In this document: piece after piece, positions 27,109 to 55,858 of the stretch
Numbering within the stretch: position 1 is the first letter of the stretch
How the letters are laid out: every line of letters starts with the position of its first letter
Source: Escherichia phage vB_Ec-M-J
Sequence record: OQ718158.1
Reading direction: 5' to 3' (one strand)
DNA length: 64,000 nt
Made by a program: the position numbers and the translations under genes
Notes under the pieces: model-generated
What the model was told of the DNA's origin: nothing
What the model saw: the letters and a program-made list of their open reading frames with translations, nothing else
Database searches by the model: none

Positions 27109-27360
27109 ATGAAAGTACTGAGTGAATTAGAAATGCATAATAGATTATACAAGTACTACCATTTACTTAAACCTATACAGAGGATTAAGTGTCCCTTTGA
27201 AGTGAAACAGGTTTTGATTTATGAGCATAAGTTCTTTGTATCATTAGGTACTAATCATCAAGAGTACTTTTTGAAGTTGTACTTGATTACATTAATAGAT
27301 TTAATTCACTATAAAACCACACAATCTAAACAAGCTAATAAAGAGAAATATGAAAACTAA
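27109..27360 (+). CDS. F1 paralog
   Basis: ATG 1 nt after upstream stop (track 27076); LGTNHQEYFLKLYL. Confidence 0.5.
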   Translation: MKVLSELEMHNRLYKYYHLLKPIQRIKCPFEVKQVLIYEHKFFVSLGTNHQEYFLKLYLITLIDLIHYKTTQSKQANKEKYEN

Positions 27361-27688
27361 TATAAAACTCAAGGTATATAAATCATTTGCAAGTACATAC
27401 ATCAAATGCCATACATGTAACTCTGTAATGGACTACAAAGGTAAGCCATTTGCACTTACTTACGATAATACAAGAGGTTTTTATATATCTTTTGCTGATT
27501 ACAAATATAACATATACGAACACATTGACATTGAAGATTTAAGTACTTTATCTGAAGAGGAATACTTTCAAGAATCATTAGTATGGGATTTGGAGTTTCC
27601 TATGTCATTGGTACATAAGATGATAGTACTAATAAAAGAAACTAAGCCTGTACCTAATGGTTATGAAGATCACATTATTGAGTATTAA
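27350..27688 (+). CDS. F2 paralog (EExxFQ-S motif protein)
   Basis: track ORF; SEEEYFQESL; N-terminal C-x-x-C. Confidence 0.6.
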   Translation: MKTNIKLKVYKSFASTYIKCHTCNSVMDYKGKPFALTYDNTRGFYISFADYKYNIYEHIDIEDLSTLSEEEYFQESLVWDLEFPMSLVHKMIVLIKETKPVPNGYEDHIIEY

Positions 27689-27702
27689 TATATAAGGTAA
27701 CT

Positions 27703-28044
27703 ATGAAAACTAATATACAACTCAATGTATACAGTTCAGAAGAACATACATATATCAAATGCAGTCTATGTAAAGATGTAATGGACTACAAAGGTAAGCC
27801 ATTCACAATTACCTATGATTCTGATGTTAATGATTTATATATATCATTTCTTAATTACGAAAATAAAATATACAAGCACGTTGATATTAAAGATTTAAGT
27901 ACTTTATCAGCAGAGGAATACTTTCAGGAATCATTAGTATGGGATTTAGAGTTTCCTATGCCATTAGTACATAAGATGGTAGTACTAATGAAAGAAGCTA
28001 AACCAGAGTTTAACGGTTATGAAGAACACACAATTGAGTATTAA
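27703..28044 (+). CDS. F2 paralog
   Basis: track ORF; SAEEYFQESL; close paralog of 27350 gene. Confidence 0.6.
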   Translation: MKTNIQLNVYSSEEHTYIKCSLCKDVMDYKGKPFTITYDSDVNDLYISFLNYENKIYKHVDIKDLSTLSAEEYFQESLVWDLEFPMPLVHKMVVLMKEAKPEFNGYEEHTIEY

Positions 28045-28260
28045 ATGAAAAGATTATCATACAAAGATTACACCAATCTTATCAGGACTTTACAACCAGA
28101 AATTAAAAGAATTAATTCTCTTCCTATATCTCCTACAGATTGTGCAGTACTGAAAGATGAGTTAATCTTAAAACACACAGTAGGAACAAACTATCAAGCT
28201 GATAGTGTTCGATATTTAATTTGGGGGTTGATGTGTCAAATAAAGTCCAAATGCAAATGA
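28045..28260 (+). CDS. F1 paralog
   Basis: ATG adjacent to upstream stop; VGTNYQADSVRYLI. Confidence 0.55.
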   Translation: MKRLSYKDYTNLIRTLQPEIKRINSLPISPTDCAVLKDELILKHTVGTNYQADSVRYLIWGLMCQIKSKCK

Positions 28261-28266
28261 CAGTAC

Positions 28267-28295
28267 TTGACAGTACTTTTCATTACTGATATAGT
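28267..28295 (+). promoter_or_regulatory. internal array promoter
   Basis: TTGACA-17-TATAGT. Confidence 0.45.
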
Positions 28296-28326
28296 ACCTG
28301 TACGTTAATCATTAGGGTAGAAAATT

Positions 28327-28895: not shown

Positions 28896-28904
28896 GAGAA
28901 GAAT

Positions 28905-30355: not shown

Positions 30356-30366
30356 GGAATACCAAT

Positions 30367-30927
30367 ATGAATGATATTGAGTTATTGGTACATAAGATTT
30401 GCACAATATCGTTAGTGCTGAACAATGCGAATACAGTACAGAGTTCCCTTTTAAGAATTAATAAAGTTGGGAGTAGTTTATATTTGGAAGTAAAAGCTGG
30501 TTTTGCAGGACAGTACAATGATAAAATCAAAGAAGAAGTTAAGGGAAATGAAGATGCTTTCATTGAGGTTTGTGCAACAGTTGGTTCAAATCCAATTTCA
30601 GTATCACCTTTAATGCGAAATGAAAATTCAGAATTTGATTCCAGTTTTGAAGGTTATTTGTGGTACAATGCTGGTGATGATTATTTTATATATCAGAATT
30701 CCAAAACGGATTATAGTGAAGAAGGTATAAAATTCATTGATCCTTACAATGAAGCAGAAGTATTTCAGACATCCCTAATATACAATGCAAATCAAATGAA
30801 GTATCTTATGTTGTTTAGTACAATGCATTTGAATCCATTGAAAGATAATTTAAAATTTTTCATTCGTTTAGAATTAGTTGATATTGCTTATGATCTTTTA
30901 ATGCAAGGATACAGTTATGAAGTATAA
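30367..30927 (+). CDS. F2 paralog (LLMQGYSYEV C-terminus)
   Basis: track ORF; EAEVFQTSL; C-terminal 60 aa near-identical to 31004 gene. Confidence 0.6.
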   Translation: MNDIELLVHKICTISLVLNNANTVQSSLLRINKVGSSLYLEVKAGFAGQYNDKIKEEVKGNEDAFIEVCATVGSNPISVSPLMRNENSEFDSSFEGYLWYNAGDDYFIYQNSKTDYSEEGIKFIDPYNEAEVFQTSLIYNANQMKYLMLFSTMHLNPLKDNLKFFIRLELVDIAYDLLMQGYSYEV

Positions 30928-30928
30928 A

Positions 30929-30997: not shown

Positions 30998-31003
30998 TAA
31001 TAT

Positions 31004-31510
31004 ATGAATGAGATAGAATTATTAGCACACAAGATTAGTACAGTAATGCTTATGCTCAAGAATAATCATTCTATGCATAAGTACATTTTTATAGGTGATT
31101 TACGCATAGAAGATAGATATGATAAATTATCGTTTATGTTTAAAGATGAAAGTAATGCAAAAGTTTGTTTTGCAGCATTTGCCCAAGGCAATCCAGAACA
31201 AGCATCTCCTGTTATATACGAAAATAGTGAAGGGTATTTGTGGGTCAACACAAACGATTATTTCTTTTATGTTTTGAAACAAGATGATGAAGTAGAAGCA
31301 CGAATTGATTTAATTGATATTAGTTCAGATTGTAGTGCTGAATTATTTCAGAAATCGTTATTATACAGTCCTCGTCAAATACATTATCTAAAGTTATTCA
31401 GTTCATTGTACGCGAATCCTTTAATTAAGGGTTTTAAATTTTATATCAAAATTCCGCACCTTTCAAACGTTTATGATTTATTAATGCAAGGATATAGTTA
31501 TGAAGTATAA
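31004..31510 (+). CDS. F2 paralog (LLMQGYSYEV C-terminus)
   Basis: track ORF; SAELFQKSL. Confidence 0.6.
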   Translation: MNEIELLAHKISTVMLMLKNNHSMHKYIFIGDLRIEDRYDKLSFMFKDESNAKVCFAAFAQGNPEQASPVIYENSEGYLWVNTNDYFFYVLKQDDEVEARIDLIDISSDCSAELFQKSLLYSPRQIHYLKLFSSLYANPLIKGFKFYIKIPHLSNVYDLLMQGYSYEV

Positions 31511-31843: not shown

Positions 31844-32149
31844 ATGCTTTATACATTATCAGGGATATATGTAGAATTAGAACCCGATTATCCAGATGGA
31901 TGGAATTTTATCAAACGCTCCGAAAGAAATACATGGTACATGGCACATTTGGATAATGACGTAATATTAGACAATTTTGTGGATTTTAATACATTATCAG
32001 AAGAAGAATTCTTCCAAATGCAATGTGTGCTTGACACAAAAGGATTTGATGTGCTATTATTAAAGAATATACAGAAAGCTGTTAACGAATTAATATCCAA
32101 TGACGAGTTAGGCAAAGTGAGGCTGTTCCATGATCTCGAAGTACAATGA
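31844..32149 (+). CDS. F2 paralog (MLYT type)
   Basis: start at MLYT ATG (track 31808 is GTG); preceded by fossil ...agttatgaagtataaa; SEEEFFQMQC. Confidence 0.5.
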   Translation: MLYTLSGIYVELEPDYPDGWNFIKRSERNTWYMAHLDNDVILDNFVDFNTLSEEEFFQMQCVLDTKGFDVLLLKNIQKAVNELISNDELGKVRLFHDLEVQ

Positions 32150-32705
32150 AAGCAATGAGTACAATGAAATTCAGTACACCTACGCTAATGCAATCCTTAT
32201 GGGACAAAAGTTAGCTTGTATTGTTGCAGCCTTATATAATGCACAGAAAGATTACAAGCGTCACATCCACAAATGTATTGGTATTATTCCATCGAAGTAC
32301 AATACATATATTGCGTGCACGAGACATTTTGATAAACGATTCAATACACCTGATACCCCAAATGCCCATAGTGTTATTGGTCTTTTGGATTTTGCCCCTG
32401 GTGCTGTTATTGGAAAGAATGATTTAGAGTACGCATGGTATAATAAAAATGCCCCGTTAGTAATGGTAAAATATGATACAGAAACGAACAAAGCAATAGA
32501 GTACAATACATATAAATCAGAGGAAGAATTTTTCCAAGGTTCATTGCTTGTGCCAGTGCGTTTGTTATTTTATAATGTCATAATGAGTACAGTACACGAT
32601 AGTCCATTACACAAGAATCACAAAATTAATTTCAATTTTTGTGCTTATGCGATTGATGGTGTTTATGAGTGCTTAATGGAGGTATTGAGTTATGAAGCTG
32701 AATAA
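32130..32705 (+). CDS. F2 paralog
   Basis: track ORF (start uncertain); SEEEFFQGSL. Confidence 0.5.
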   Translation: MISKYNESNEYNEIQYTYANAILMGQKLACIVAALYNAQKDYKRHIHKCIGIIPSKYNTYIACTRHFDKRFNTPDTPNAHSVIGLLDFAPGAVIGKNDLEYAWYNKNAPLVMVKYDTETNKAIEYNTYKSEEEFFQGSLLVPVRLLFYNVIMSTVHDSPLHKNHKINFNFCAYAIDGVYECLMEVLSYEAE

Positions 32706-33033: not shown

Positions 33034-33509
33034 AGTTCAGTTTAGATGCAGCCTTTAAATTTGTTCACAAAATAGAAACAATATATCGTACATTATGTGC
33101 AATAACATCAGTATCAAAAGAGTTTGATGTTGGTGAAAGGTATCAGGTGTGGAATAATTCATTTTATAATAAAGAACATTCTGCGACGGCATTTTATATT
33201 TTAGCATTTAATCCCAGCAATTGTTACCCAGAGAAGCATGAACGTTATCCAAATGACGACATGTGGTTTGAGTACAAAGAAGATGCTGATATGTCGTCAA
33301 TTGTAGTTCCTGATGATTTTAATGCACAAGATTTAACAGAAGAGTGGTGGTTCCAGCAGAATTTAGTACATGATGATATTGATTTATTTTTCTATATTGC
33401 ATTTAAAATGCTTTATCACAACAATATAGTTAAAGAAAGTTTATCGTTTTCATGTCTATATATTGATGATTTGTACAATGAAATTCAAATAAACATGCCT
33501 GTATCGTAA
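33012..33509 (+). CDS. F2 paralog
   Basis: track ORF; TEEWWFQQNL. Confidence 0.55.
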   Translation: MHRMSDLEFSLDAAFKFVHKIETIYRTLCAITSVSKEFDVGERYQVWNNSFYNKEHSATAFYILAFNPSNCYPEKHERYPNDDMWFEYKEDADMSSIVVPDDFNAQDLTEEWWFQQNLVHDDIDLFFYIAFKMLYHNNIVKESLSFSCLYIDDLYNEIQINMPVS

Positions 33510-33527
33510 GATATGGGCTTTTTTTGT

Positions 33528-33556
33528 TTGACACGAGTACAAATGCATGGTACAAT
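33528..33556 (+). promoter_or_regulatory. internal array promoter
   Basis: TTGACA-17-TACAAT, preceded by T-run. Confidence 0.5.
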
Positions 33557-33581
33557 GTGTAATCATTTTAAGGAGATACCT

Positions 33582-34157
33582 ATGGAAAATTTTAAAATAC
33601 CAGATGATTTCAATTCAGTACAAGAGATTGTACACAAGGTTCATTATATTTTTAATGAATTAATTATTGCCAATTCATCCGGTATGCAAATTGAGTTAAA
33701 GGATATTGATAGAGAAGAAGTTTTTTTGGGTTCCCCAAATTCAATCATTCCTTTTTATGGTCAGGACCGTTTATGGTTCATGAGAGATACCCCAATTGAC
33801 AAATACAAAATACAAACAAAATCAGAGTTTTATTCTATTTTTGAATATCTTAATATTACATTACAAACACAAGATATAAATGCAATAAGTGCCATGAGTG
33901 CTGAGGAATATTTTCAGTACAGTACATTGCATAGTCCAGAAGAAATCTTTGTTGTTATGCTCGTTGCAAAATTGAGTACAGTTGATTTTGGGACGTACCC
34001 AAATAAATCATTCAAGATTATTATTCCTGCATTCGTTGATCTTTATGATTTCATTGTGCACAAGAAAGAAAGTACAGTGTACGATATGTATCGTTCAAAT
34101 ATCAGTTTATTTGCATCAAGTGCAGTAAATGCAGTGATTACAGGGGAATTAAAATGA
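33582..34157 (+). CDS. F2 paralog
   Basis: start moved to ATG after RBS AAGGAG (track 33513 overlaps promoter); SAEEYFQYST. Confidence 0.6.
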   Translation: MENFKIPDDFNSVQEIVHKVHYIFNELIIANSSGMQIELKDIDREEVFLGSPNSIIPFYGQDRLWFMRDTPIDKYKIQTKSEFYSIFEYLNITLQTQDINAISAMSAEEYFQYSTLHSPEEIFVVMLVAKLSTVDFGTYPNKSFKIIIPAFVDLYDFIVHKKESTVYDMYRSNISLFASSAVNAVITGELK

Positions 34158-34763: not shown

Positions 34764-34958
34764 ATGACCGCCTATGATATCAAACAAAGGCATACGAAGT
34801 TTGATTTGTTCACATACCAATTCCACAATGATATAGTGAATTTTAACATCAATGCGTCCTTGCATCCTACATCACAAGATGATTTTGACAACAGAGTGCT
34901 TAACATCGTGGTGCTTTTGTGTTATAATCATTTCAGTGAATATTTTAACGCCAAATGA
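34764..34958 (+). CDS. hypothetical small protein (64 aa)
   Basis: track ORF; no family motif. Confidence 0.35.
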   Translation: MTAYDIKQRHTKFDLFTYQFHNDIVNFNINASLHPTSQDDFDNRVLNIVVLLCYNHFSEYFNAK

Positions 34959-34965
34959 GGCACAC

Positions 34966-35484
34966 ATGTATCAGGCCAAGTACAATACATCATATGCATT
35001 TGCACACAACATTTTGAAGATCATCAAAGCGTTAGAGGGTGGATTGCTTAGTCATAAGTACACCAAAGTAGGTGACAATTGGTTCAGAAATGATGATGAG
35101 TTCAGAAGTCATAAGATTGTTTACAGCAATAATTACAGTGCCAATTACCTTCAGGATGTTGCTATGTGCTTCGAATACGTGTTACAGTTCAGGGGTTCCA
35201 TCAGTCCTGATCTAAGAGAACACATGTACATTCGATACCTACCAATGCTTAAGGATGAGAAATCAATATTCAATTCAGTACACCACAGAGTACGAGAGAG
35301 AACATTCAGGGATATTTTAGAAGATGAAGCTGCATATTTCCAGCAATCATTGATTGATGCTCCTGATGTGTTACAGATGCAGAATTTGTATAATGTATTA
35401 GATGCGAACATCGATACGGATATCTTTTTTTCCTTAAGTGATTATGAAACATTTTTGGAAGATTTAAAGGAAATAGGATTATGA
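34966..35484 (+). CDS. F2 paralog
   Basis: start moved to ATG after RBS TGAGG (track 34852); DEAAYFQQSL. Confidence 0.55.
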   Translation: MYQAKYNTSYAFAHNILKIIKALEGGLLSHKYTKVGDNWFRNDDEFRSHKIVYSNNYSANYLQDVAMCFEYVLQFRGSISPDLREHMYIRYLPMLKDEKSIFNSVHHRVRERTFRDILEDEAAYFQQSLIDAPDVLQMQNLYNVLDANIDTDIFFSLSDYETFLEDLKEIGL

Positions 35485-36968: not shown

Positions 36969-37174
36969 AGACGTTTCATTTTCACAGGCCGCAGGAGGGG
37001 GGGTCAAAAAAATTTTCGCTGAAAAACATGTTAAGGTATATGTTTAATATAAAGTTTTAAAATGTGTTCACAGAGTACAGTTCATGTTTCCTTAAACAAA
37101 AAAATACCCAGCCGCCGAACGTGCTCCTTATATTGGAGTTTACCTTATTAATTACAGTAGAGATTACAATTGAA

Positions 37175-37558
37175 ATGAAGATGCAAATAAAATATAATGA
37201 ATTTTGTGCAAGGACATTCATGTACACTGGTGAATTAGTTACGCACTGTAACTTATACAAGGGTGATTTAAACTACACAAGGGACAAGCTTATAAAATAC
37301 GAAAATGCTGACTTTTATTTGATGGATTTTAGTACTGGGTTTCATGGGATATCTATCGAGATGCCGGACTATACCGTACTTGATGATGCTGCACTGTTTC
37401 AGGAGGCATTAGTATTTGATAAGAAGTACATCTGTACATTAGAAGAGATAGTTGAAATCCAGCGTAGAATTAAATGTATTCACAGGGAATGTATAGATAT
37501 CTGGTGCAGGACTGGTGAGGCTGATTTCTGGAAATTTTTTAATCTAGGGGAAGAGTGA
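37175..37558 (+). CDS. F2 paralog (CNL.KGD subfamily)
   Basis: start chosen by alignment with 37555 and 37911 paralogs (track 37064); DAALFQEAL. Confidence 0.5.
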   Translation: MKMQIKYNEFCARTFMYTGELVTHCNLYKGDLNYTRDKLIKYENADFYLMDFSTGFHGISIEMPDYTVLDDAALFQEALVFDKKYICTLEEIVEIQRRIKCIHRECIDIWCRTGEADFWKFFNLGEE

Positions 37559-37914
37559 TGGAATTTGATTTTGTAATATCAGTACATTCTTTTAAGAACA
37601 GTTTTCAGTACTTTTGTAATTTAAACAAAGGTGATTTAATGCACAGTGCAAATGAGTATATTCATTACACTCAGGGTAAATTTACATTCATTGATTACAA
37701 TTCATTACAGTATCCACATCAAGATATGCCGGACTATACAGTAATGGATGCCGCTGAACTATTTCAGGAGTCATTAGTATTTGATAAGAAGTACTTGTGT
37801 ACATTTGAAGAAGTAATTGCAATACAAAATGAAATGAAAGAGTATGACTCTTTGAATAAAGGCAATGTCAGTATTAATCAAGAATACAAATTCAATATAG
37901 GAATTCCAGAATGA
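37555..37914 (+). CDS. F2 paralog (CNL.KGD subfamily)
   Basis: ATGA overlap; AAELFQESLVFDKKYLCT. Confidence 0.6.
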   Translation: MMEFDFVISVHSFKNSFQYFCNLNKGDLMHSANEYIHYTQGKFTFIDYNSLQYPHQDMPDYTVMDAAELFQESLVFDKKYLCTFEEVIAIQNEMKEYDSLNKGNVSINQEYKFNIGIPE

Positions 37915-38438: not shown

Positions 38439-38909
38439 ATGAGTTTTTCAAGAGCATTAGAAATTGCTAAGTTAATTGATTTATGTAAAAAGGAAATAGT
38501 ACTCAATCGTCTCAATGGGTATCTATTCAAGGAAGGTAAAGCTTATTGTCGAATGATATACGATGACAGTAGTGAGTACATTCACATGTACGAAGAAAAC
38601 TTAGATTCTTCTGAAACAACACTCACTGGGTGTGATGTTAATCTGGAAGATAATTACATGTACTTCTGTCGTGATGCTGATATTTTAATACAATATACTG
38701 ACATTATAACTGGTGCAGCAGAAAAACATCTTCCGTATTCAGTACTGGATAATGACTGGGGAAGTGAAGAGTTCTACTTCCAGCAGAATACTATCTACGA
38801 GGAATATGTGCTTGACAAGCTTGTCATTCTGTGGTACTTTAATAATACCGATTGTCCTAGCTTCTATCTGGACTTGGATCTACTACGAGTTATTAAAGAG
38901 GATATATGA
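38439..38909 (+). CDS. F2 paralog (WG.EE.YFQ / WYF subfamily)
   Basis: track ORF; DNDWGSEEFYFQQNT...VILWYF. Confidence 0.6.
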   Translation: MSFSRALEIAKLIDLCKKEIVLNRLNGYLFKEGKAYCRMIYDDSSEYIHMYEENLDSSETTLTGCDVNLEDNYMYFCRDADILIQYTDIITGAAEKHLPYSVLDNDWGSEEFYFQQNTIYEEYVLDKLVILWYFNNTDCPSFYLDLDLLRVIKEDI

Positions 38910-39346
38910 GTTTAGCAAGTGCACTTAAACTGGCACACAAAATACATCACTTCCACGATAACATAAAAAGTGGTTTCTATGGTGATAAAGTAAGTGCATT
39001 TGGTAATGAGTATTATCTATCAGGTATAAAGACATACTCTGATGATATTTTACTTATGGGCCATGATAAAGACAATACTATACAGTACTCTTCATGTAGT
39101 CAATATACTAGTTTTTTTGTATATATTCCAGGTACTAAGATTACTTTTGACACATCAAATACACCTGTTGACTTCGGGATACTTGATGGGCCGTGGGGTA
39201 CTGAAGAGTATTACTTCCAACAGAGTCTTATTTTTAACCAAGAAATGCTTGATTCCTTGGTTGTTTTGTGGTACTTTAAGGAATTGAATTTTGAACCCTT
39301 CTTCCTTGACTGGGGAGCATGTGAATATTTAAGTACAGGGGATTAG
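38906..39346 (+). CDS. F2 paralog (WYF subfamily)
   Basis: ATGA overlap; GPWGTEEYYFQQSL. Confidence 0.6.
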   Translation: MSLASALKLAHKIHHFHDNIKSGFYGDKVSAFGNEYYLSGIKTYSDDILLMGHDKDNTIQYSSCSQYTSFFVYIPGTKITFDTSNTPVDFGILDGPWGTEEYYFQQSLIFNQEMLDSLVVLWYFKELNFEPFFLDWGACEYLSTGD

Positions 39347-39348
39347 TA

Positions 39349-39837
39349 ATGTCATTACAAAGTGCATTGAAAGAAGCAAAGAAGATTCATGAGTACATGA
39401 TTATGGTACAAGAAGGTTCAGTGCCTGGTGTGTATAAAACATCTGATACTGAATTTTTTGTAAAAGACCGCGACGATTATGATGAGTCAGAGATACATGC
39501 AGAAACGTTAGTACTACACACTGATACGGGTGATACTGATGACTGTGAATATCATATGTACAATCAATACATTAGTTATTGTAGAGATGAAGATATTATA
39601 ATTTACAGCCCTGATTACGATGATTATGACACAATCATTCCGTATTCAGTACTGGAAGGTCCGTGGGACAGTGAGGAATATTACTTCCAGAACAGTACTG
39701 TGTACAATGAAGAAGAATTAGATGTTATTGTAATTATGTGGTACTTTAAAAGTATTGGTTCTGGTAGTTTCTATTTCGATTATGAATACGTAGAGAATAC
39801 TGTAGGGGAAGATAATGTCATTACGAAGTGCTCTTGA
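39349..39837 (+). CDS. F2 paralog (WYF subfamily)
   Basis: track ORF; GPWDSEEYYFQNST. Confidence 0.6.
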   Translation: MSLQSALKEAKKIHEYMIMVQEGSVPGVYKTSDTEFFVKDRDDYDESEIHAETLVLHTDTGDTDDCEYHMYNQYISYCRDEDIIIYSPDYDDYDTIIPYSVLEGPWDSEEYYFQNSTVYNEEELDVIVIMWYFKSIGSGSFYFDYEYVENTVGEDNVITKCS

Positions 39838-40258
39838 TAAAGCAAAAGAACTACAGGCATATATTGAAGATATTAAGGCTGGGAAGTTCGAAGAAGTATA
39901 CAAAGCCGAGAATGGTAACTACTACAAGGATTGTGATTTTGCTACAACTACAGTTATTCTTGGGTTGAATTCCAAAAGTCCCGCAGATTTTTCACAATAC
40001 AATCCAGATGCAGAATTTATCAGTTATGCTTATGGTGGTGAAATCCGTTTTTATAATCGCAGCAGACCTTTAAAATTGAACTTTGAAGTACTGAAAGGTC
40101 CGTGGGATAGTGAAGAGTATTACTTTCAGAATAGTACTTTGTATGATGATGAAGTACTAGATACTTTAGTTATTATGTGGTACTTTAAAAGTATTGATAG
40201 CACAAGATTTTATTTGGATTATGAATATGTACGTGCAGCACATAAGGGTAAACGATGA
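39815..40258 (+). CDS. F2 paralog (WYF subfamily)
   Basis: track ORF; GPWDSEEYYFQNST. Confidence 0.6.
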   Translation: MSLRSALDKAKELQAYIEDIKAGKFEEVYKAENGNYYKDCDFATTTVILGLNSKSPADFSQYNPDAEFISYAYGGEIRFYNRSRPLKLNFEVLKGPWDSEEYYFQNSTLYDDEVLDTLVIMWYFKSIDSTRFYLDYEYVRAAHKGKR

Positions 40259-40569: not shown

Positions 40570-41012
40570 TGTACGAAAGTGATCTTAAGCACGCTGAAGA
40601 ATTAGTTAATATAGTAAAGTTCTTTCAAAATAATATAAAGTACTTAGACTATAAAGGGGCATATATTAGTACTATAAGTGTTGGTACTGATATTCTAGGA
40701 TTAGGTAATGAATATAAGTACGAGTCACATGATTATGATTTGGAATTCAAGTACTTCGTATGGGATTCTGGAACTTTCTATTATATAGAGGAAGGTGGAA
40801 AATATTTTGAATTCACAGAAGAAGAAGTACTATTTTTAAATTCAGAAGATGCTTACTTCCAGTACAGTACTATATACCCAAATGGGGCGTTAAGAGCTTT
40901 AGTAGTTTTTAATGCATTCCTGAAAGAGAACTTTAATAATTCTATATTCATTGATTTAGATTATGTATATGAACTAAATCAGGTGATATATATGGAGTCC
41001 AGAGAAAAATGA
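40569..41012 (+). CDS. F2 paralog
   Basis: track ORF; EDAYFQYST. Confidence 0.55.
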   Translation: MYESDLKHAEELVNIVKFFQNNIKYLDYKGAYISTISVGTDILGLGNEYKYESHDYDLEFKYFVWDSGTFYYIEEGGKYFEFTEEEVLFLNSEDAYFQYSTIYPNGALRALVVFNAFLKENFNNSIFIDLDYVYELNQVIYMESREK

Positions 41013-42181: not shown

Positions 42182-42350
42182 TATTGCTAAACTATTCAAT
42201 ATATATTCTTCTAAAATGATGCAAACCGACTCATATAGTACTGAATTCAAAGAATTAAAAGTACTGATGTATTTGGGCACACAGTATCAGGAACAAGTTG
42301 TTAAAGAATATATTGATTCTTTACAGAAGGATATCCGTTATGTACAATGA
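42159..42350 (+). CDS. F1 paralog (embedded in F2 array)
   Basis: track ORF; LGTQYQEQVVKEYI. Confidence 0.5.
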   Translation: MKIIDQDDIAKLFNIYSSKMMQTDSYSTEFKELKVLMYLGTQYQEQVVKEYIDSLQKDIRYVQ

Positions 42351-42894
42351 ACTTGACTTAGCATTTGAGCGTGTAAAAATCTTCATTGAAACTTATCTTA
42401 TGCATGAAACTATACTGAAAACAAAAGGAATATGGTTCACTGATAAATTTCTTACTATGGCTATGAGAGGTGGAATGAAACATCTGTACTGCACAGATAA
42501 TGCAAGAATTTCAGTACTGAATTATGATGAAAGTGTAGCATCCAGTACCAGTTTAATTTCTACATACAATGATAATGTTATTAGTATTATGTGCAATATG
42601 AATGTCCCATCTATTTCTGTATATAAAAACTGTGATAGTTCATTGGAGTACAAGATTGAGCAGTACTTATATCCTAACACAGAAGAAAACATCTTTCAAA
42701 ATAGTCTTATGTGGGATGATACATCTACTAAGTGCATATATCTTTATAATAAATTAAAAGAGTACATTGTTGATAGTTCAATTAGTACTGCTGTATTCAG
42801 TGTTACTGTTTTTAATGATAATCGTGAAGATATGAGTTATTACAGAGACATTGTAAGAATACATGCAATGTATAAGGATCTACTATGTTATTAA
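42340..42894 (+). CDS. F2 paralog
   Basis: start moved to ATG after RBS GAAGG (track 42298); EENIFQNSL. Confidence 0.5.
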   Translation: MYNELDLAFERVKIFIETYLMHETILKTKGIWFTDKFLTMAMRGGMKHLYCTDNARISVLNYDESVASSTSLISTYNDNVISIMCNMNVPSISVYKNCDSSLEYKIEQYLYPNTEENIFQNSLMWDDTSTKCIYLYNKLKEYIVDSSISTAVFSVTVFNDNREDMSYYRDIVRIHAMYKDLLCY

Positions 42895-43852: not shown

Positions 43853-44180
43853 ATTAGTAAAAATAATGTACGCAACTCACACCAAGTTATTATTGGTTAA
43901 AATGGATTACAACAGAAAACATAATGAATTCTGTACATTAATCCGAAATGAGGAATCATTTACATTGCGTACAAATGATAAGCCAATGCTAACTATAAAT
44001 GATTTTTCAGGTTTAGATACAGGTGAATTGTTTCAGGAGTCATTAGTACTGGATAGTAGTATACATTTGGAAATTGAAGTACTACAACAGTACCAGATAC
44101 TTTTGAATCGTATTATGGAAAATTATCCATGTGAAGTTGGTGGACCAATGCAATTCAAATCAAAGATGTATGAACTATGA
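43842..44180 (+). CDS. F2 paralog
   Basis: track ORF; TGELFQESL. Confidence 0.55.
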   Translation: MKTELVKIMYATHTKLLLVKMDYNRKHNEFCTLIRNEESFTLRTNDKPMLTINDFSGLDTGELFQESLVLDSSIHLEIEVLQQYQILLNRIMENYPCEVGGPMQFKSKMYEL

Positions 44181-44187
44181 GGTTAGT

Positions 44188-44721
44188 ATGTTAGATAAAA
44201 TAAAGAACGAGGGAACTCTATACAATCATCTTAAGTTGGATACGTTCGAGGCAGCAATCAGTACTGCACAAGATATAATTGATATTATCAAGTACATTAA
44301 AGAAAATAAGTTAAAATGTGTGAAAACGCCAGAACGTACAATGTACAAAGATGACGACCTTCACGTATCAGTTGTTAAGCCAAAAGATAAGGATGGTAAT
44401 AGAGATTTCTATAATAACAGTGCACAGTATGAATGTGAATATGATCCCGAATTTAGAGGTGGATTCATGTGCTTCAGTAAAACAGATACTTCACATGTTG
44501 AGATACGTACATTAAAAGGTCTAGGTAGATTTGAGTTCATGGATATAGAACTAAATGAAGAAAACTACTTCCAACAATCATTACTTAATACTGAATACAA
44601 TTTAGGTGTACTATTCATGTACAAGTACTTATATGAGCACTTAAATGAAGACTTCTATCTGGACTTAGAAGATTACCATTTAGTATGGAAAGAAATGGTA
44701 GAACTTCGTGAGAACTCTTGA
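44188..44721 (+). CDS. F2 paralog
   Basis: start moved to ATG after RBS GAGG (track 44131); EENYFQQSL. Confidence 0.55.
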   Translation: MLDKIKNEGTLYNHLKLDTFEAAISTAQDIIDIIKYIKENKLKCVKTPERTMYKDDDLHVSVVKPKDKDGNRDFYNNSAQYECEYDPEFRGGFMCFSKTDTSHVEIRTLKGLGRFEFMDIELNEENYFQQSLLNTEYNLGVLFMYKYLYEHLNEDFYLDLEDYHLVWKEMVELRENS

Positions 44722-44747
44722 CACCCTCCAAATCTTTGTGATATAAT
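44718..44747 (+). promoter_or_regulatory. internal array promoter
   Basis: TTGACA-18-TATAAT with TG extended -10. Confidence 0.5.
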
Positions 44748-44780: not shown

Positions 44781-45263
44781 ATGTCCAAAGACCTATCATT
44801 TAGCAATGCACAAAAAATCGCACAAAATATCATTAAACTTCATAAGTTCCTTTTAACAGTTAAAGAGAATATAATTCTCCCACGATGCACACTTTATGCG
44901 TACAAAAATTATTTGTCAATGAATAGCAATTTGTTGCATACTACAGATGAGAATTTCTGTGGTATTCGTGTACTTGACGATGCACCAACAGGGGATTTTA
45001 TCTCATATTGTTTCCATACATCTGATAGTTTTAAGTACTATCATCCTAGATTTAATGATGATGAATATGAATATGACACATTTAATGTTAGATCAGAAGA
45101 AGAATTCTTCCAGTACAGTACTTTGTACAATGAGAGAATCGTGTTTAGTTCTACAATTTTTACAGTACTTAAAGATGAACTCAATGACGCAGATGATAGA
45201 TTCTATATGGATTTAAACTTCGTAGATGAAATCATTGAGTACATGGAGAAAAATGGTCTATGA
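44781..45263 (+). CDS. F2 paralog
   Basis: track ORF; SEEEFFQYST. Confidence 0.6.
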   Translation: MSKDLSFSNAQKIAQNIIKLHKFLLTVKENIILPRCTLYAYKNYLSMNSNLLHTTDENFCGIRVLDDAPTGDFISYCFHTSDSFKYYHPRFNDDEYEYDTFNVRSEEEFFQYSTLYNERIVFSSTIFTVLKDELNDADDRFYMDLNFVDEIIEYMEKNGL

Positions 45264-45742
45264 TTACAACAGAATATGATTACGATGGTGTTTTAGAATT
45301 TGCATCTAACATTCATCGCATTGCAAAGGAGTTCAGAAGTCCCCAACCTTTCGGTGGAATGCCTTTTGGTGGAATGTTCCAATATGACCAATTCAGTTCA
45401 ACCAAAGGAAGACTTGCCTTTAAAAATAATAAGGGCAATCAAGTATATGCTGAGTTCTTTGACGATAATGACTTTCACTACAGAGCTGAATATATTTCAT
45501 ATTGCCAAGGGTCTGATTTGAAGATTAACATTGATACATTTAGAGATTCAGTGTTTATCCCTTATAGTGAGTTAGTTTTCATGACAGAAGAAATGTACTT
45601 CCAAGGGTCTTGTATTCATGATGCAAAAGTACTTAATGCTATATTACTTTATGGTGCACTACTTCATCATTACAAATACAAACAACGATTCTTTATAGAT
45701 TTAGTTGTATACCATCAATGCGTGGATTATTTGAATGCATAA
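45260..45742 (+). CDS. F2 paralog
   Basis: ATGA overlap; TEEMYFQGSC. Confidence 0.6.
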   Translation: MITTEYDYDGVLEFASNIHRIAKEFRSPQPFGGMPFGGMFQYDQFSSTKGRLAFKNNKGNQVYAEFFDDNDFHYRAEYISYCQGSDLKINIDTFRDSVFIPYSELVFMTEEMYFQGSCIHDAKVLNAILLYGALLHHYKYKQRFFIDLVVYHQCVDYLNA

Positions 45743-46097
45743 TACAACAACAATTCAGTACATGACGGATGGCAATGATTGCTTTGCTTCAAGATATGAA
45801 TTCATCAAGAACCATTTTGTAACCTATATCCCTGAATATAATCAGTTTTATCTACAGATTTACCAAAATGATTCATATATGAATGAGATATATTCTGAAA
45901 TAAAAATCCCTGATTATAGTACTTTATCAGAAGAGGAATTGTTTCAGGAGAGCACTGTCAATACTGAAGATGTGTACGAACTAATGGAATACCAGAAGGT
46001 ACTTAAATATTTCCATGAAGTTCAGGATATACAAATGGATAGTGTTAAAACGTGGAATTATAACACATACGAGGTAAATTATGTTCGAAATGATTAA
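45735..46097 (+). CDS. F2 paralog
   Basis: track ORF; SEEELFQEST. Confidence 0.55.
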   Translation: MHNTTTIQYMTDGNDCFASRYEFIKNHFVTYIPEYNQFYLQIYQNDSYMNEIYSEIKIPDYSTLSEEELFQESTVNTEDVYELMEYQKVLKYFHEVQDIQMDSVKTWNYNTYEVNYVRND

Positions 46098-46494
46098 AAT
46101 TATGCAACGATGCATTGTTGACCAACATGGAATATATGGATATAGTTTAAGTGCAGCTATTGACAAAAACAAAACAACCTATGTAAGCTATAATTCAGTA
46201 CTTGGATTTGATATATTCATTGATGCCAACAATAAAATCAAACAAGCCAAGGATGTATCTATAATGACCCCTGATGAGCTATTTCAGTACAGCTTAGTTC
46301 TGCCCACCTGTATTGATTTACAACGCCTAGGAGCTATACAGAAGGTTTTACGCGAACATAAAGTACAACCAAATAAAATTACACACATTCCAGAAACATT
46401 CTACAAACCCATAGAAGTAGAAACACCTGATTATATGTTAAGTGATGATGAGTTCTACAAGAAACACTTCCCTGGTAAAGTTTGGAGAGATTAA
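46081..46494 (+). CDS. F2 paralog
   Basis: track ORF; PDELFQYSL. Confidence 0.55.
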   Translation: MFEMIKIMQRCIVDQHGIYGYSLSAAIDKNKTTYVSYNSVLGFDIFIDANNKIKQAKDVSIMTPDELFQYSLVLPTCIDLQRLGAIQKVLREHKVQPNKITHIPETFYKPIEVETPDYMLSDDEFYKKHFPGKVWRD

Positions 46495-46976
46495 TGAACC
46501 GAAAGTACAGAGAAACTATGAAGTTCGCTAAGGAGTGTTTAGAGACAGTTGATTTCATTTTCGATAACAAAGACTCATTGGGTCGCCACTTCGTAATTAC
46601 AAAGAAAGAAGATAAGAGATACAAATGTCAACGATTAGGATACAGTATTGAGTTCTCCTTAATGATTGATGGCATGATAAACTCCTTATATGAATGTGGT
46701 AAGACTGATTACATTTCATTTAGATCTTGGAGTGAACGTGTCATGTTCTTGACTCCAAATGGAGTTGTATATCCTTTTCTTGATGATTTATCAGAAGAAA
46801 GTTACTTTCAAAATAGTTTAATTTACACAGAAAAAGAACTCAAAATGCTATTCATTATGTCGTACTTTAAAAAGTACTGCAATTTTAAATCATTATCTTT
46901 TGAGATCTCTGCAATGAAAGTATTCATTAAAAATGTAAAAGAATTAAAGAGGATTTACGATGTACATAGAAAATGA
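46482..46976 (+). CDS. F2 paralog
   Basis: track ORF; SEESYFQNSL. Confidence 0.55.
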   Translation: MERLMNRKYRETMKFAKECLETVDFIFDNKDSLGRHFVITKKEDKRYKCQRLGYSIEFSLMIDGMINSLYECGKTDYISFRSWSERVMFLTPNGVVYPFLDDLSEESYFQNSLIYTEKELKMLFIMSYFKKYCNFKSLSFEISAMKVFIKNVKELKRIYDVHRK

Positions 46977-48056: not shown

Positions 48057-48567
48057 AGATGATATTCTAATCAGACTAATCAACAGTCTGTTAAAATTCG
48101 TGAATAGTGATAGTGATACACACAATGTAGGTGACATTGAATTCAAATCATTTGGAATGTACGGTGAGGACAAAACATATTATGCATCAATGAAATTCCA
48201 AGATTATTATGAAATGTTAATTGCGTTAACATACGAAGATGTGGACCCAAGATGGAGTTCCAGTATTTCTCTGTCGAGAATGGTAATTCGTAGTAAACAT
48301 CGTTACATTTCGTCAAAGAATACTCCTAATTTGTTTGATATTGTTTTGAATGAAAATACCAACCCCCCATCTAAACATGATATCGTACCTTTAACTGATG
48401 AAGTACAGTTTCAATTGAGTACCATTTGTGATGAAGATGTGATATCATGTATGAAAATTTACGAGAAGATTGGTAGTGATATCCCTAAGAACTATTACAT
48501 AACAATAGATGGAACGTACCTCCGAGATGAGGCTCTAGCGTACATTGACAGCGTTTTACCAAAATAA
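48049..48567 (+). CDS. F2 paralog
   Basis: start moved to ATG after RBS AGGGAG (track 47983); DEVQFQLST. Confidence 0.5.
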   Translation: MNKDDILIRLINSLLKFVNSDSDTHNVGDIEFKSFGMYGEDKTYYASMKFQDYYEMLIALTYEDVDPRWSSSISLSRMVIRSKHRYISSKNTPNLFDIVLNENTNPPSKHDIVPLTDEVQFQLSTICDEDVISCMKIYEKIGSDIPKNYYITIDGTYLRDEALAYIDSVLPK

Positions 48568-48590
48568 AGACCCTTATGGGTCTTTTTGTG
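48568..48590 (+). terminator. rho-independent terminator
   Basis: AGACCCttatGGGTCT then TTTTTG. Confidence 0.7.
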
Positions 48591-48598
48591 TTTAGTGC

Positions 48599-48627
48599 TT
48601 TACATGAGCATTCAGGTGTGTTATAAT
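48599..48627 (+). promoter_or_regulatory. internal array promoter
   Basis: TTTACA-17-TATAAT. Confidence 0.5.
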
Positions 48628-53028: not shown

Positions 53029-53602
53029 AGAAATAGAAAGTAAAATTAAGTACTTCAAAGATATTAAAAAACTTTGGGAAAAGTATAAAATTGATTATCA
53101 GTTCCAAGATGATGATACTGTTCAAAACATTGATATTAATATTCGTGTGAAGTTCAAGAATGGTAGTTATGGTGAAGTTAAATTGAATGCTATTGGTGTA
53201 TTCCTTAAAGATTATGATGGTTCTTCACTTGCTCAATTCGATTTCACACCTGATCCTGATGATATGTTACTGAGTGAAATCAATGCATATGACCTTGAGA
53301 TGTTTAGTGGGAAGCCTTTACTATTCCGCTTATCAGATGAATGGGATGAGGTTTACTACACATACAAAGATGGAGTGATTCGAGACGTGAATGATGAAGT
53401 AGTAAATGATATGGAAGAACGTCTATTTCAAGAATCATGTGTGTCATCGGAGTCATATACATATCAATATCTTCTTGACATGTTCGATTTGTATAGTAAA
53501 ATAGATTCAGAAATGAGTACTTTAAGTATTCAATACCTTACAATCAACGACTATGCACAACTTGAAACAGTAGTGAAAGCTCTGGTCAAAGTACTGAAAT
53601 AG
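53018..53602 (+). CDS. F2 paralog
   Basis: track ORF; EERLFQESC. Confidence 0.5.
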   Translation: MNFKEIESKIKYFKDIKKLWEKYKIDYQFQDDDTVQNIDINIRVKFKNGSYGEVKLNAIGVFLKDYDGSSLAQFDFTPDPDDMLLSEINAYDLEMFSGKPLLFRLSDEWDEVYYTYKDGVIRDVNDEVVNDMEERLFQESCVSSESYTYQYLLDMFDLYSKIDSEMSTLSIQYLTINDYAQLETVVKALVKVLK

Positions 53603-53611
53603 GAATGAATT

Positions 53612-54025
53612 ATGAAACTGTATCATGCGAGTACTGTAAAAATTGATAACTTTTATATCCCGTATGGTGGCCTTCATATGGGAGGCAAACACAGTGCTCT
53701 AGAAGCTGCATTACGCAAGCTGAGAAGCCCACTAAACGTCGTTGACGCTGATACAGTATACTTGCATACCTTAGAAGTTGATGTTGATAACGTGCTTCTA
53801 TGGGAAGATTTAGGTAGTGATGATGAGTGGCGTGGGCTGATTGAACATTGTAATTCTAAAGGTTACGATGCTGTTCAGTACACAAATGAATACGAGCCGG
53901 ATAATGTTCCTAGTTATATGATTTGGGATACATCTAAAATTCGTATTATTGAAGTTGATGCGATGCATATGGATGATGCAGAAATGATCATCGAAGATTT
54001 CCTTGATGAATATGAAGGTGTATAA
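53612..54025 (+). CDS. hypothetical acidic protein (137 aa)
   Basis: track ORF; RBS AGGAATGAA; no family motif. Confidence 0.5.
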   Translation: MKLYHASTVKIDNFYIPYGGLHMGGKHSALEAALRKLRSPLNVVDADTVYLHTLEVDVDNVLLWEDLGSDDEWRGLIEHCNSKGYDAVQYTNEYEPDNVPSYMIWDTSKIRIIEVDAMHMDDAEMIIEDFLDEYEGV

Positions 54026-54543
54026 TGATTGAACCTATGACAGTACTAGCACGTACTAAACTATTATTGAAGATTGCTGAGATATTCACTGTTCTTATGT
54101 ACAAAAATAAAGACATAACTGACTTAGGTATTAAGCAACCTTGGTCTGTGTCAAGGTTCTCTGCATTCTACAGATTATCATATAATGGTGAAACTGTTCT
54201 TGATTTTAATCCAAAAGCCAAGTTTATGAATTACGCTGCATTATATGAATGTAATGGTGGATTAACAAATGACTTCACTGAAATAAAAGTACAATCAGAA
54301 TCATTAGAATTTAATGACTTACTATATCCAGAATTTAAGTTAACTGAAGAAATACTTTTCCAGTACTCTCTGATTCTCAAAGATACCAAAAGTCTTGAGT
54401 ACTACAAAGAGTTAGTAGATATTTTTAAGAATACTCGATTTACAAAAGATATTGTGATATTCTGGTATGCAGAGCATGTTACTGAGGAATTGCTTGAAGA
54501 ATTTCTTCTAAATATGACAGCAATCAAGGAGAAGTTATGTTAG
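54025..54543 (+). CDS. F2 paralog
   Basis: track ORF; TEEILFQYSL. Confidence 0.55.
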   Translation: MIEPMTVLARTKLLLKIAEIFTVLMYKNKDITDLGIKQPWSVSRFSAFYRLSYNGETVLDFNPKAKFMNYAALYECNGGLTNDFTEIKVQSESLEFNDLLYPEFKLTEEILFQYSLILKDTKSLEYYKELVDIFKNTRFTKDIVIFWYAEHVTEELLEEFLLNMTAIKEKLC

Positions 54544-55010
54544 ACATTTTAGGAAACATCGATACAGCAAATTATTTTATTCAAGATGCACTGTTCAATA
54601 CAGTACAGAAAGGGTTGGATGTACGATGTAATATCCATCAGGGAGATGGGTATTTTGTTGATATCACTGAAACACGCAAGAACGTGTTCAATTTAAACAT
54701 TACCACATTGACACGTCAGAACATTGCACGTATTTTGGTCAATAAAGATGAAGTAGTTCTTCGTTATAATTCCAAATTCCTGTTCACATACAAGAAGAAG
54801 ACTGACATGTTCAGTACTAATTTGTTTGATGAACCCTTCAATCTGGAAGACTTAGAAGCAACATTCTTTACACAGAATACTATGCTGAAATTCAATGATG
54901 TTGAATTTTCATCAGAAGTAATGTCTGAAACACTACAAATGGTTAAGGTAGTATTCTATGCTTTTCAACAGTTTAACGAAGAACGAAACAAGGTTAACAA
55001 CAACAGATGA
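54537..55010 (+). CDS. F2-like paralog
   Basis: track ORF; variant EATFFTQNT. Confidence 0.45.
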   Translation: MLDILGNIDTANYFIQDALFNTVQKGLDVRCNIHQGDGYFVDITETRKNVFNLNITTLTRQNIARILVNKDEVVLRYNSKFLFTYKKKTDMFSTNLFDEPFNLEDLEATFFTQNTMLKFNDVEFSSEVMSETLQMVKVVFYAFQQFNEERNKVNNNR

Positions 55011-55023
55011 ACTAATCGCGGCG

Positions 55024-55371
55024 ATGGGAGCCAATGAGAAATACTTCAATGGGATTCATTTTTTTAAAACGTATCTTAGTGAAAGTAAAGTACTATATGT
55101 ATACGGTTCCCAGTACTGCATTGTCGCAAAGCACCCAGATTCGATTTCACTAAAATTTAACACTTATTCAAAAAACTTCTTGACGATTAATAAAAGCAAT
55201 GTTACTATGTCTGGTATAGGGAATCAGGTTGTTGAGATTCCTTTGGACTCAATTGATTCTATTGAGTTCTTTCAATACGAGTGCTTAGGTGTTGATTTTG
55301 GTACTGTCAGTACTGAATCTATGCGAACATTAATTAATTTACTTAAAGGTAAAGTTCATGCTTTTAACTAA
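55024..55371 (+). CDS. F2-like paralog
   Basis: first in-frame ATG after upstream stop (track 54958); IEFFQYEC. Confidence 0.45.
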   Translation: MGANEKYFNGIHFFKTYLSESKVLYVYGSQYCIVAKHPDSISLKFNTYSKNFLTINKSNVTMSGIGNQVVEIPLDSIDSIEFFQYECLGVDFGTVSTESMRTLINLLKGKVHAFN

Positions 55372-55858
55372 TTCGATGAAGAATTCATTTAAAATTATCA
55401 AAGAAATACTAAATGGGTCTAAAACTTCTAGTGGGTCTTCCTTTACTAGTGACCAGATCCAACACAGTACAAAGGATTGTACTGTAATCTTTGGGTTACA
55501 TAGTCTGCGTTTGACAATAGTAAATAATATTGATAACACAGCAATTGTAATCACCCCATGTCATATTCAGAATGAAACAGGTGCATACTTACACCACATG
55601 GGGACTGTATTCTACATCTTCAATACTGAAGAAAACATTGTTAAAGAATACAACACACTCAATGTTGATGCAGGTGAGTTATTCCAATTGAGTACTGTCA
55701 ATGATTGTAACTTCAGTGACAATGCAGAAGTACTTCCATTGTTTCTAAGTCTTCTCAATAACATGGAAAAACTAACCACTGCATACAACAAAAGTGACGT
55801 ACCGCAAGCAGTATTGAATATCACCGAAGCAATGGAGAAATACAAAGCTGTGACCTAA
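55358..55858 (+). CDS. F2 paralog
   Basis: track ORF; AGELFQLST. Confidence 0.5.
   Translation: MLLTNSMKNSFKIIKEILNGSKTSSGSSFTSDQIQHSTKDCTVIFGLHSLRLTIVNNIDNTAIVITPCHIQNETGAYLHHMGTVFYIFNTEENIVKEYNTLNVDAGELFQLSTVNDCNFSDNAEVLPLFLSLLNNMEKLTTAYNKSDVPQAVLNITEAMEKYKAVT

Follow-up and report, generated by a model that had tools for sequence, protein, structure and literature searches.

A 28.5-kb tandem array of diverged paralogues in an Escherichia coli jumbo phage forms a single protein family with a shared motif and a predicted alpha+beta fold

Why does a bacteriophage carry dozens of consecutive genes for related small proteins, and what could such an array do? We address this question for the window, a 64,000-nucleotide stretch of Escherichia phage vB_Ec-M-J (sequence record OQ718158.1), in which one protein family, here called F2, fills most of positions 27350-55858. 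An earlier sequence-only reading had described about 47 genes there, with a common C-terminal motif behind variable N-termini. The array and the first 20 kb of the window match phages WPEC5, CMSTMSU, Turkey3, 121Q (taxonomy, Asteriusvirus), PBECO4 and phAPEC6 at 83-98% identity (megablast), and these relatives are E. coli jumbo phages of 350-385 kb. The window phage is an Asteriusvirus-type (121Q/PBECO4-like) E. coli jumbo phage of the 121Q/RaK2 group. Beneath the array, all coding sequences in the relatives' records are annotated "hypothetical protein." We found that F2, a large multigene family of ancient origin, is under purifying selection and confined to the RaK2-like clade, and that its array in the window is the product of repeated local duplication and long divergence.

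Membership in F2 was decided with a hidden Markov model (HMM) seeded with the regions around the motif and run on plus-strand open reading frames (ORFs) of at least 50 amino acids, nested ones removed. Iterated on the window's own ORFs, the HMM converged at 41 members (whole-protein E = 6.5e-07 to 1.8e-22), and its enrichment with members from phages 121Q and RaK2 added the gene at 49218-49802, giving 42. All 42 lie on the plus strand within 27350-55858 (28.5 kb), and neighbours are often closest relatives, as expected of a tandem multigene family; a scan of the other 117 window ORFs with the enriched HMM yielded no F2 member. The array is therefore real, and the earlier count of about 47 comes down to 42 firm members with at most five marginal candidates (at 41452, 48655, 50367, 50792 and 54958; hhalign probability ≤42%). 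Thirteen other array ORFs of at least 100 amino acids, considered as hidden members, were left out because the hints were weak (hhalign probability ≤42% at best). That nearly every ORF belongs to the family was an overstatement: F2 accounts for 42 of the 67 non-nested ORFs of at least 50 amino acids, 42 of the 55 of at least 100 amino acids, and 69.5% of the bases. Among the rest of the 67, five ORFs belong to a second family, F1, and 20 are unrelated or could not be assigned.

What the 42 genes share is a C-terminal common region of about 60-80 amino acids with the motif [STD]-x-E-E-x-[YFL]-F-Q-x-S-[LT], whose F and Q are invariant across all members in every alignment. Measured in the 29 ORFs that match a strict regular expression, the motif stands 43-84 residues from the C-terminus, mostly 44-69. 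The sequence-only reading had recognised this motif throughout the array correctly, and each of the strings that it quoted (SEEEYFQESL, SEEYYFQNST, TEEGYFQGST, TEEMYFQGSC and EENYFQQSL) was found. Its sub-families were recovered as well: the WYF genes at 38439-40258 (PW[DG]-x-EE-x-YFQ...WYFK), the CNL-KGD genes at 37064-38255 (CNLNKGD...FQESLVFDKKYLCT) and the LLMQGYSYEV tails, which are identical in 30367-30927 and 31004-31510.

Is such a family already known? None of 10 F2 members scanned against Pfam reached the gathering score (best E = 0.02), 45 sequences scanned against NCBIfam gave weak, chance-level matches for five, and a profile search of PDB sequences at E values up to 10 gave 0 matches. 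F2 members do match PHROGs 9317, 12674, 19795, 15629, 13866, 34636 and 28680, all of "unknown function"; the closest PHROG has an E value of 1e-50 to 1e-116 in 8 of 10 scanned members and of 2.2e-31 and 1.2e-08 in the other two, and the phrog_28680 alignment covers residues 39-210 of the protein of 34852-35484. The matched PHROG profiles cross-match one another weakly. Because F2 is spread over at least seven PHROGs, that database fragments it and does not treat it as one superfamily. Among 5.8 billion proteins, a word-indexed profile search found 43 matches, all unnamed or "hypothetical" and, where the contig could be judged, on contigs of jumbo-phage size (~350 kb). Searched exhaustively with HMMER, 1.84 billion cluster representatives yielded only 114 matches at E ≤ 0.001; 113 of them are 65-193 amino acids long, and the domain is C-terminal in nearly all. 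Ten that were looked up belong to E. coli Asteriusvirus, Klebsiella Alcyoneusvirus, metagenomic sequences and, in one spurious case, a snail repeat protein. Literature searches for functional work on F2 in Asteriusvirus or Alcyoneusvirus found none. With no Pfam, NCBIfam or PDB assignment and only function-less PHROGs, the earlier impression of an undescribed family stands.

Sequence similarity among F2 paralogues is detectable in the C-terminal half only, and BLAST joins the N-terminal parts only within six small sub-families. A conserved N-terminal helix, tried as a second signature, was dropped, since an HMM of that helix recovers only 8 window members. AlphaFold2 modelled the 162-amino-acid protein of 39349-39837 from a 45-sequence alignment with a mean predicted local distance difference test score (pLDDT) of 86.3 and a predicted template-modelling score (pTM) of 0.83. 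The model begins with an N-terminal helix (residues 3-22) and continues through seven strands over residues 28-97 and three helices (99-103, 109-117 and 121-135) to a strand at 141-144 and a final helix; the motif, here EEYYFQNS, is residues 109-116 and opens the first long helix (mean pLDDT of the blocks, 96-97). The 119-amino-acid short form of 37555-37914 (pLDDT 82.9, pTM 0.80) is modelled without the N-terminal helix, as five strands, a motif helix (66-75), a long helix (84-100) and a terminal strand, and the core order of elements is identical in the two forms. Because both models span the whole protein compactly, they argue for a single domain, and the proposed conserved C-terminal module behind a free N-terminus finds no support in them.

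We predict that F2 proteins are soluble, mostly acidic and 100-210 amino acids long, with one alpha+beta domain in which two or three helices back an antiparallel sheet of 5-7 strands, and that the long forms gain an N-terminal helix. Foldseek aligns full-length F2 paralogues of 15-21% identity at template-modelling (TM) scores of 0.5-0.6. Its matches are uncharacterised proteins only; the named ones all come from RaK2-group jumbo phages. Serratia phage BF and, very weakly (E = 0.57), an Erwinia phage were likewise indicated by Foldseek. The fold is a confident prediction that matches nothing solved. Within it, the motif would act as a structural keystone and not as a catalytic or cleavage site: an acidic pair that follows an S, T or D where the helix starts would cap its N-terminus, and the aromatic residues next to it would anchor it in the core.

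How did the array arise, and is it maintained? The mean pairwise identity of F2 domains within the window is 20%, the median identity to the best paralogue is 35%, and for 17 of the 42 members the closest paralogue lies at most two family positions away, as repeated duplication and divergence, already suggested by the sub-families, would have it. Phage 121Q carries 40-41 F2 members in the same order as the window. Between the two we found 35 reciprocal-best pairs (41-94% amino-acid identity, reading frames intact in all 35); six window genes have no such partner, and five genes occur in 121Q only. Pooled over the 35 pairs, the Nei-Gojobori method gives 0.170 nonsynonymous (dN) and 0.665 synonymous (dS) substitutions per site and a ratio (omega) of 0.26, and the flanking genes have a dN of 0.07-0.09 and an omega of 0.12-0.18. 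F2 evolves about twice as fast as its surroundings (dN). The omega of 0.26 over orthologue pairs means that each paralogue is maintained by selection. A concentration of divergence in the N-termini, for which a dN/dS comparison had been suggested, did not appear: omega against 121Q is 0.26 in the N-terminal part and 0.25 in the C-terminal domain, both purifying.

The family extends to other genera. Pairwise tblastn from the window reached Klebsiella phage RaK2 (Alcyoneusvirus) marginally and Cronobacter phage GAP32 (Mimasvirus) not at all, and the members in both were found by HMM scan of the syntenic loci. RaK2 has at least 26 F2 members with the motif TEEGYFQxS at the syntenic site, upstream of ORF441/445, a dam methylase and a cytidyltransferase; no clean one-to-one orthology between window and RaK2 members was found. 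GAP32 has about 10 tandem genes, two of them significant by HMM and the others carrying the motif. In 121Q, RaK2 and GAP32 alike, the array is syntenic and precedes the dam methylase and cytidyltransferase genes. A 109-kb contig of an uncultivated phage (L005; JGI 3300007747, contig Ga0101111_1000018; guanine-plus-cytosine [GC] content 0.33) holds at least 22 tandem F2 genes at positions 28048-48563 that are 36-42% identical to Asteriusvirus, RaK2 or GAP32 members, which indicates a further, unclassified lineage with an F2 array.

Closer relatives reveal variation at the level of single genes. Most F2 genes are 93-100% identical to those of WPEC5, a relative at 97% identity. The gene at 32130-32705 is only 65% identical to its WPEC5 counterpart and 94% identical to the 121Q allele, with WPEC5 neighbours at 98-100%, a pattern that points to gene-sized recombination between lineages. 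The two leftmost F2 genes correspond to one WPEC5 gene, and coverage of the left third of the array ranges from 2% to 93% across 35 phage records. Judging from these alignments, single F2 genes have evidently been exchanged between phage lineages.

The genes are packed head-to-tail, as had been noted: 49 of the 66 array junctions overlap, 13 of them as ATGA, and only 6 have gaps of more than 35 nucleotides. Near-consensus sigma-70 sites with an extended -10 element occupy the rare gaps at 28267, 44718 and 48599. A further promoter-like site, at 33528, falls in the stretch that would be vacated if 33513-34157 used the start of its WPEC5 orthologue, which the WPEC5 annotation puts about 70 nucleotides past the start of the longest ORF. 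Counted together, near-consensus promoter-like sites stand in four of the six gaps. The equivalent region of phage CBB is predicted to be early, with RpoD-like promoters (PMC5259590), and PA5oct, a related phage, depends on the RNA polymerase of its host (PMC7318152). The published virion proteome of the relative phAPEC6, with 62 proteins, contains nothing from gp348 to gp548 (PMC7247149), a range that includes the F2 member gp442c (P0018); F2 is thus not among the virion proteins detected in that phage. The median isoelectric point of F2 proteins is 4.9 versus 6.2 for other window ORFs, and they have no membrane-spanning segments except in two ORFs that were probably called from too early a start. 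From these features we infer early expression by the host polymerase and residence of F2 proteins in the cytoplasm. The members and the candidate transcription signals are collected in Table 1.

Table 1. F2 genes and transcription-signal candidates in the array (lengths in amino acids, aa; positions in the window; E values from the F2 HMM)
Feature	Position	Strand	Basis
F2 short form, 112 aa, SEEEYFQESL	27350..27688	+	E 4.7e-16
F2 short form, 113 aa	27703..28044	+	E 6.6e-13
Putative sigma-70-like promoter, TTGACA-17-TATAGT with TG, in 66-nucleotide gap	28267..28295	+	11/12 consensus matches
F2 short form, 116 aa	28545..28895	+	E 5.6e-15
F2 short form, 103 aa	28905..29216	+	E 4.4e-16
F2 long form, 186 aa, LLMQGYSYEV tail	30367..30927	+	E 1.3e-17
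F2 long form, 168 aa, LLMQGYSYEV tail	31004..31510	+	E 1.7e-16
F2 short form, 103 aa	31500..31811	+	E 3.3e-16
F2 short form, 113 aa	31808..32149	+	E 4.1e-17
F2 long form, 191 aa, allele swapped relative to WPEC5	32130..32705	+	E 3.1e-16
F2 long form, 165 aa	33012..33509	+	E 2.6e-13
Terminator-like hairpin 33497-33518, then promoter-like site 33528-33556; likely operon boundary	33497..33556	+	
F2 long form, longest ORF 214 aa, true start probably near 33582 (WPEC5 annotation)	33513..34157	+	E 5.5e-13
F2 long form, 202 aa	34154..34762	+	E 1.5e-11
F2 long form, longest ORF 210 aa; orthologue's annotated start, 34966	34852..35484	+	E 1.2e-13
F2 long form, 208 aa	35764..36390	+	E 2.3e-13
F2 CNL-KGD sub-family, longest ORF 164 aa, start probably later	37064..37558	+	E 3.7e-12
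F2 short form, 119 aa, structure predicted	37555..37914	+	E 9.8e-18
F2 short form, 114 aa	37911..38255	+	E 4.6e-16
F2 long form, 156 aa, WYF sub-family	38439..38909	+	E 1.8e-19
F2 long form, 146 aa, WYF sub-family	38906..39346	+	E 6.5e-18
F2 long form, 162 aa, structure predicted	39349..39837	+	E 1.8e-22
F2 long form, 147 aa, WYF sub-family	39815..40258	+	E 3.9e-21
F2 short form, 104 aa	40255..40569	+	E 1.2e-14
F2 long form, 147 aa	40569..41012	+	E 1.3e-14
F2 long form, 148 aa, TEEGYFQGST	41009..41455	+	E 7.6e-16
F2 long form, longest ORF 198 aa, annotated start near 42340	42298..42894	+	E 6.2e-12
F2 short form, 119 aa	43493..43852	+	E 1.6e-15
F2 short form, 112 aa	43842..44180	+	E 8.2e-10
F2 long form, longest ORF 196 aa, annotated start 44188	44131..44721	+	E 6.9e-14
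Putative sigma-70-like promoter, TTGACA-18-TATAAT with TG, in 59-nucleotide gap	44718..44747	+	12/12 consensus matches
F2 long form, 160 aa	44781..45263	+	E 8.1e-17
F2 long form, 160 aa, TEEMYFQGSC	45260..45742	+	E 6e-18
F2 short form, 120 aa	45735..46097	+	E 3.8e-14
F2 gene, 137 aa, weakest firm member	46081..46494	+	E 6.5e-07
F2 long form, 164 aa, window member closest to RaK2 copies	46482..46976	+	E 1.3e-16
F2 long form, 185 aa	47499..48056	+	E 1.9e-11
F2 long form, 194 aa	47983..48567	+	E 3.3e-14
Terminator-like hairpin 48566-48585, then promoter-like site 48599-48627; putative operon boundary inside array	48566..48627	+	
F2 divergent, 194 aa	49218..49802	+	E 0.0055 with window-only HMM; 1.7e-08 with 121Q + RaK2 HMM
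F2 long form, 192 aa	49789..50367	+	E 3.9e-12
F2 long form, 193 aa	51285..51866	+	E 5e-16
F2 long form, 183 aa	51878..52429	+	E 3.1e-09
F2 long form, 194 aa	53018..53602	+	E 5.1e-12
F2 long form, 172 aa	54025..54543	+	E 1.8e-11
F2 last member, 166 aa	55358..55858	+	E 2.8e-09

The neighbouring family F1 is a second tandem family, of 30 small helical proteins (63-97 amino acids). Twenty-five contiguous copies lie directly upstream of the F2 array (21594-27360), and five lie inside it (28045-28260, 29200-29412, 29364-29657, 41954-42181 and 42159-42350); there are 26 copies at the 121Q locus and 11 at that of RaK2. F1 proteins share 25% identity on average in pairwise comparison, omega versus 121Q is 0.39, and four members scanned against Pfam gave no match. 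The possibility that F1 and F2 form a single family was rejected (hhalign probability 0.5%). Downstream of the array, 58567-59415 encodes a 282-amino-acid protein with counterparts in RaK2 (ORF445) and GAP32 (GAP32_066). This conserved protein measures 260-286 amino acids and has, around residues 70-75, a [DE]-x-x-[MV]-F-Q-like motif. The F2 HMM matches GAP32_066 (E = 0.003), but for the window copy hhalign gives a probability of 1.9%; on sequence grounds, this gene could be a distant relative or founder gene of F2.

The entire 64-kb window is plus-strand, AT-rich, "hypothetical" early-type DNA, and its GC content declines from 0.39 to ~0.31 across the arrays. The small ORFs upstream (window positions 1-21000) include paralogue groups of 2-4, such as 1703/7563/10508/18793 and 13578/17364/20631. 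Scans of the whole window for tRNAs and Rfam families found no element. The 324 nucleotides at 59416-59739 contain no ORF of at least 50 amino acids; they hold a promoter-like TGATATAAT followed directly by a strong terminator-like hairpin at 59444-59472. This segment has no Rfam or tRNA match, and its remainder does not fold better than shuffled sequence (z = -1.15).

What, then, might the F2 proteins do? We tentatively propose that they are stoichiometric binders of diverse host proteins, built on one scaffold and active in host takeover or anti-defence, and we put the chance of this somewhat below even. According to this proposal, the genes would be arranged in a few long operons and transcribed early by the host sigma-70 RNA polymerase, and the proteins would remain in the cytoplasm without entering the virion. 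Each paralogue of the repertoire would be kept for a different host protein, be it a housekeeping target or an immune component, and single-gene exchange between phages would tune the array to its hosts. An effector or anti-defence role, about which the sequence-only reading had speculated, would fit the acidity of the proteins, the promoter-like sites and the absence from the virion. We consider it rather doubtful that the array is a binder library in the strict sense, in which a new alpha+beta scaffold would have been copied ~40 times, every copy would neutralise its own host factor or defence system, and recombination would shuffle single genes between phages. Several points weigh against our proposal. 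Function is deduced from context: acidic, soluble, non-virion proteins from a variable and mosaic locus. Selection is purifying, not diversifying, and in neither half of the protein is change in excess, which suits stable specialised functions as well as an arms race. The total number of promoter-like sites is not above that in shuffled sequence, so that only their placement in gaps is suggestive. For proteins this small, not being listed in a single virion proteome is weak negative evidence, and the helix-cap role of the motif is read solely from secondary-structure positions in the models.

The conserved position and gene order of the array across genera, together with purifying selection on every paralogue, would also suit a role in the phage's own programme, as a hetero-oligomeric scaffold, as chaperones, or as regulators of replication or assembly, and the shared conserved helix could be a common oligomerisation interface. 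However, copy number varies widely among relatives (~10, ≥22, ≥26, 41 and 42), Asteriusvirus and Alcyoneusvirus have no clean one-to-one orthology, and single genes have been swapped or lost between close relatives, which is unusual for subunits of a fixed machine. We regard such an internal role as unlikely. Another candidate explanation is that the array is mostly dispensable filler, tandem duplicates gathered after capsid enlargement in the ratchet of Hua et al., who proposed tandem duplication as a route of genome expansion and cited an array of >30 genes in 121Q (PMC5646251); the phAPEC6 paper repeats the duplication idea (PMC7247149), and the dN of F2, about twice that of flanking genes, is in its favour. 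Neutral filler would have decayed, yet omega is 0.26 with frames intact in 35 of 35 orthologue pairs, several genera have kept the family (20-40% identity), no member lacks the motif's F or Q, and tight translational coupling is retained, all of which makes filler improbable.

The same context (diversified acidic proteins, probably early and cytoplasmic, whose genes are exchanged one at a time) would be expected if F2 served in competition with other phages or mobile elements, through superinfection exclusion or immunity to rival toxins. Bacterial arrays of polymorphic immunity proteins have a similarly tandem and divergent layout. No toxin- or nuclease-like genes are interleaved, however, the scanned non-F2 ORFs in and around the array have no Pfam match, and F2 proteins lack a signal peptide or membrane segment, unlike many exclusion proteins; we give this explanation little credence. 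The motif itself invites comparison with a processing or targeting signal, either for the capsid or for a protease such as that of tobacco etch virus (TEV; E-x-x-Y-x-Q/[GS]), and a few members match E-x-x-Y-x-Q-G exactly (for example, EEGYFQG in 41009-41455 and EEMYFQG in 45260-45742). The motif, however, is part of a compact domain, where it is modelled as a helix in blocks whose mean pLDDT exceeds 90. At the position that follows Q, members differ widely (E, N, G, Q, Y, M, L, H, K or T). T4-type prohead proteases, moreover, cut after Glu. The phAPEC6 virion proteome, too, holds no protein of the array's gene range (PMC7247149). A processing or targeting signal is highly improbable, and given its modelled helix and variable post-Q residue, we dismissed the TEV-site resemblance as coincidence; F2 proteins do not qualify as TEV substrates. 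The EEGYFQG and EEMYFQG members are nonetheless worth remembering if they are expressed with TEV-cleavable tags.

Whichever explanation applies, about 8% of a 350-380 kb genome is given to one family that is absent from curated databases and has no solved structural relative. F2 is now known from three or more named genera and one uncultivated lineage as an ancient family under purifying selection that is mosaic gene by gene, and a block of "hypothetical proteins" becomes a testable target. If the host-protein binder proposal is true, the array would hold dozens of new takeover or anti-defence factors in therapy phages against E. coli, Klebsiella and Cronobacter. If the array is indeed a binder library, it would be a bacterial-virus counterpart of the immune-evasion families of African swine fever virus (ASFV) and poxviruses, as well as a source of new anti-defence proteins by the dozen, and would help explain why RaK2-like jumbo phages hold so much "dark" early DNA. 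If the binder proposal is wrong, the array is still a natural experiment in the birth, retention and exchange of a phage multigene family.

Paralogue arrays of jumbo phages are already known, and the F2 array has been noticed before, in passing. Hua et al. (2017; PMC5646251) mentioned a tandem-duplicated array of >30 genes in 121Q, and the RaK2 genome paper remarked on "10% paralogues" (PMC3622015). These remarks and that on phAPEC6 (PMC7247149) concern the same phage group and genome region, and their tandem duplication agrees with our analysis, but each is one sentence without family definition, motif, structure, distribution or function. The ">30 genes" of Hua et al. may mean the adjacent F1 array (30 copies) and not F2, and neither F1 nor F2 consists of "very similar" copies (mean pairwise identity, 20-25%). 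What is new is that F2 is defined as a single family with a diagnostic motif and a fold prediction, and that its distribution and pattern of evolution have been worked out. Bacillus phage G has an expansion of ~35 zinc-ribbon proteins, described in a jumbo-phage survey that does not report the F2 family (Iyer et al. 2021, PMC7824862). Phage G is likewise a jumbo phage in which one small protein family, without known function, occurs in dozens of copies, but its proteins are zinc ribbons predicted to bind DNA, whereas F2 proteins are acidic and alpha+beta, without conserved Cys or His.

Sheet-plus-helix binding platforms are also among the nearest known systems: polo-box domains, viral decoys resembling the major histocompatibility complex, and p32/Mam33. 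The MGF360/505/110 multigene families of ASFV and the multigene families of poxviruses act in immune evasion and host range. Like F2, they are tandem and strongly diverged, lie in a variable region and differ in copy number or alleles between isolates; they have no sequence or fold relationship to F2 and infect another domain of hosts; immune evasion by F2 would be an analogy only. In poxvirus "gene accordions," anti-defence loci undergo recent tandem amplification. For phage T6, SegB-driven amplification of anti-defence loci is reported (PMC13096335). Accordions and T6 amplification share with F2 the use of tandem duplication as an adaptive route in virus-host conflict, but their copies are recent, near-identical and reversible, whereas F2 paralogues are ancient (20% identity) and each under purifying selection. 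Set beside these systems, the F2 array is a viral lineage-specific multigene expansion.

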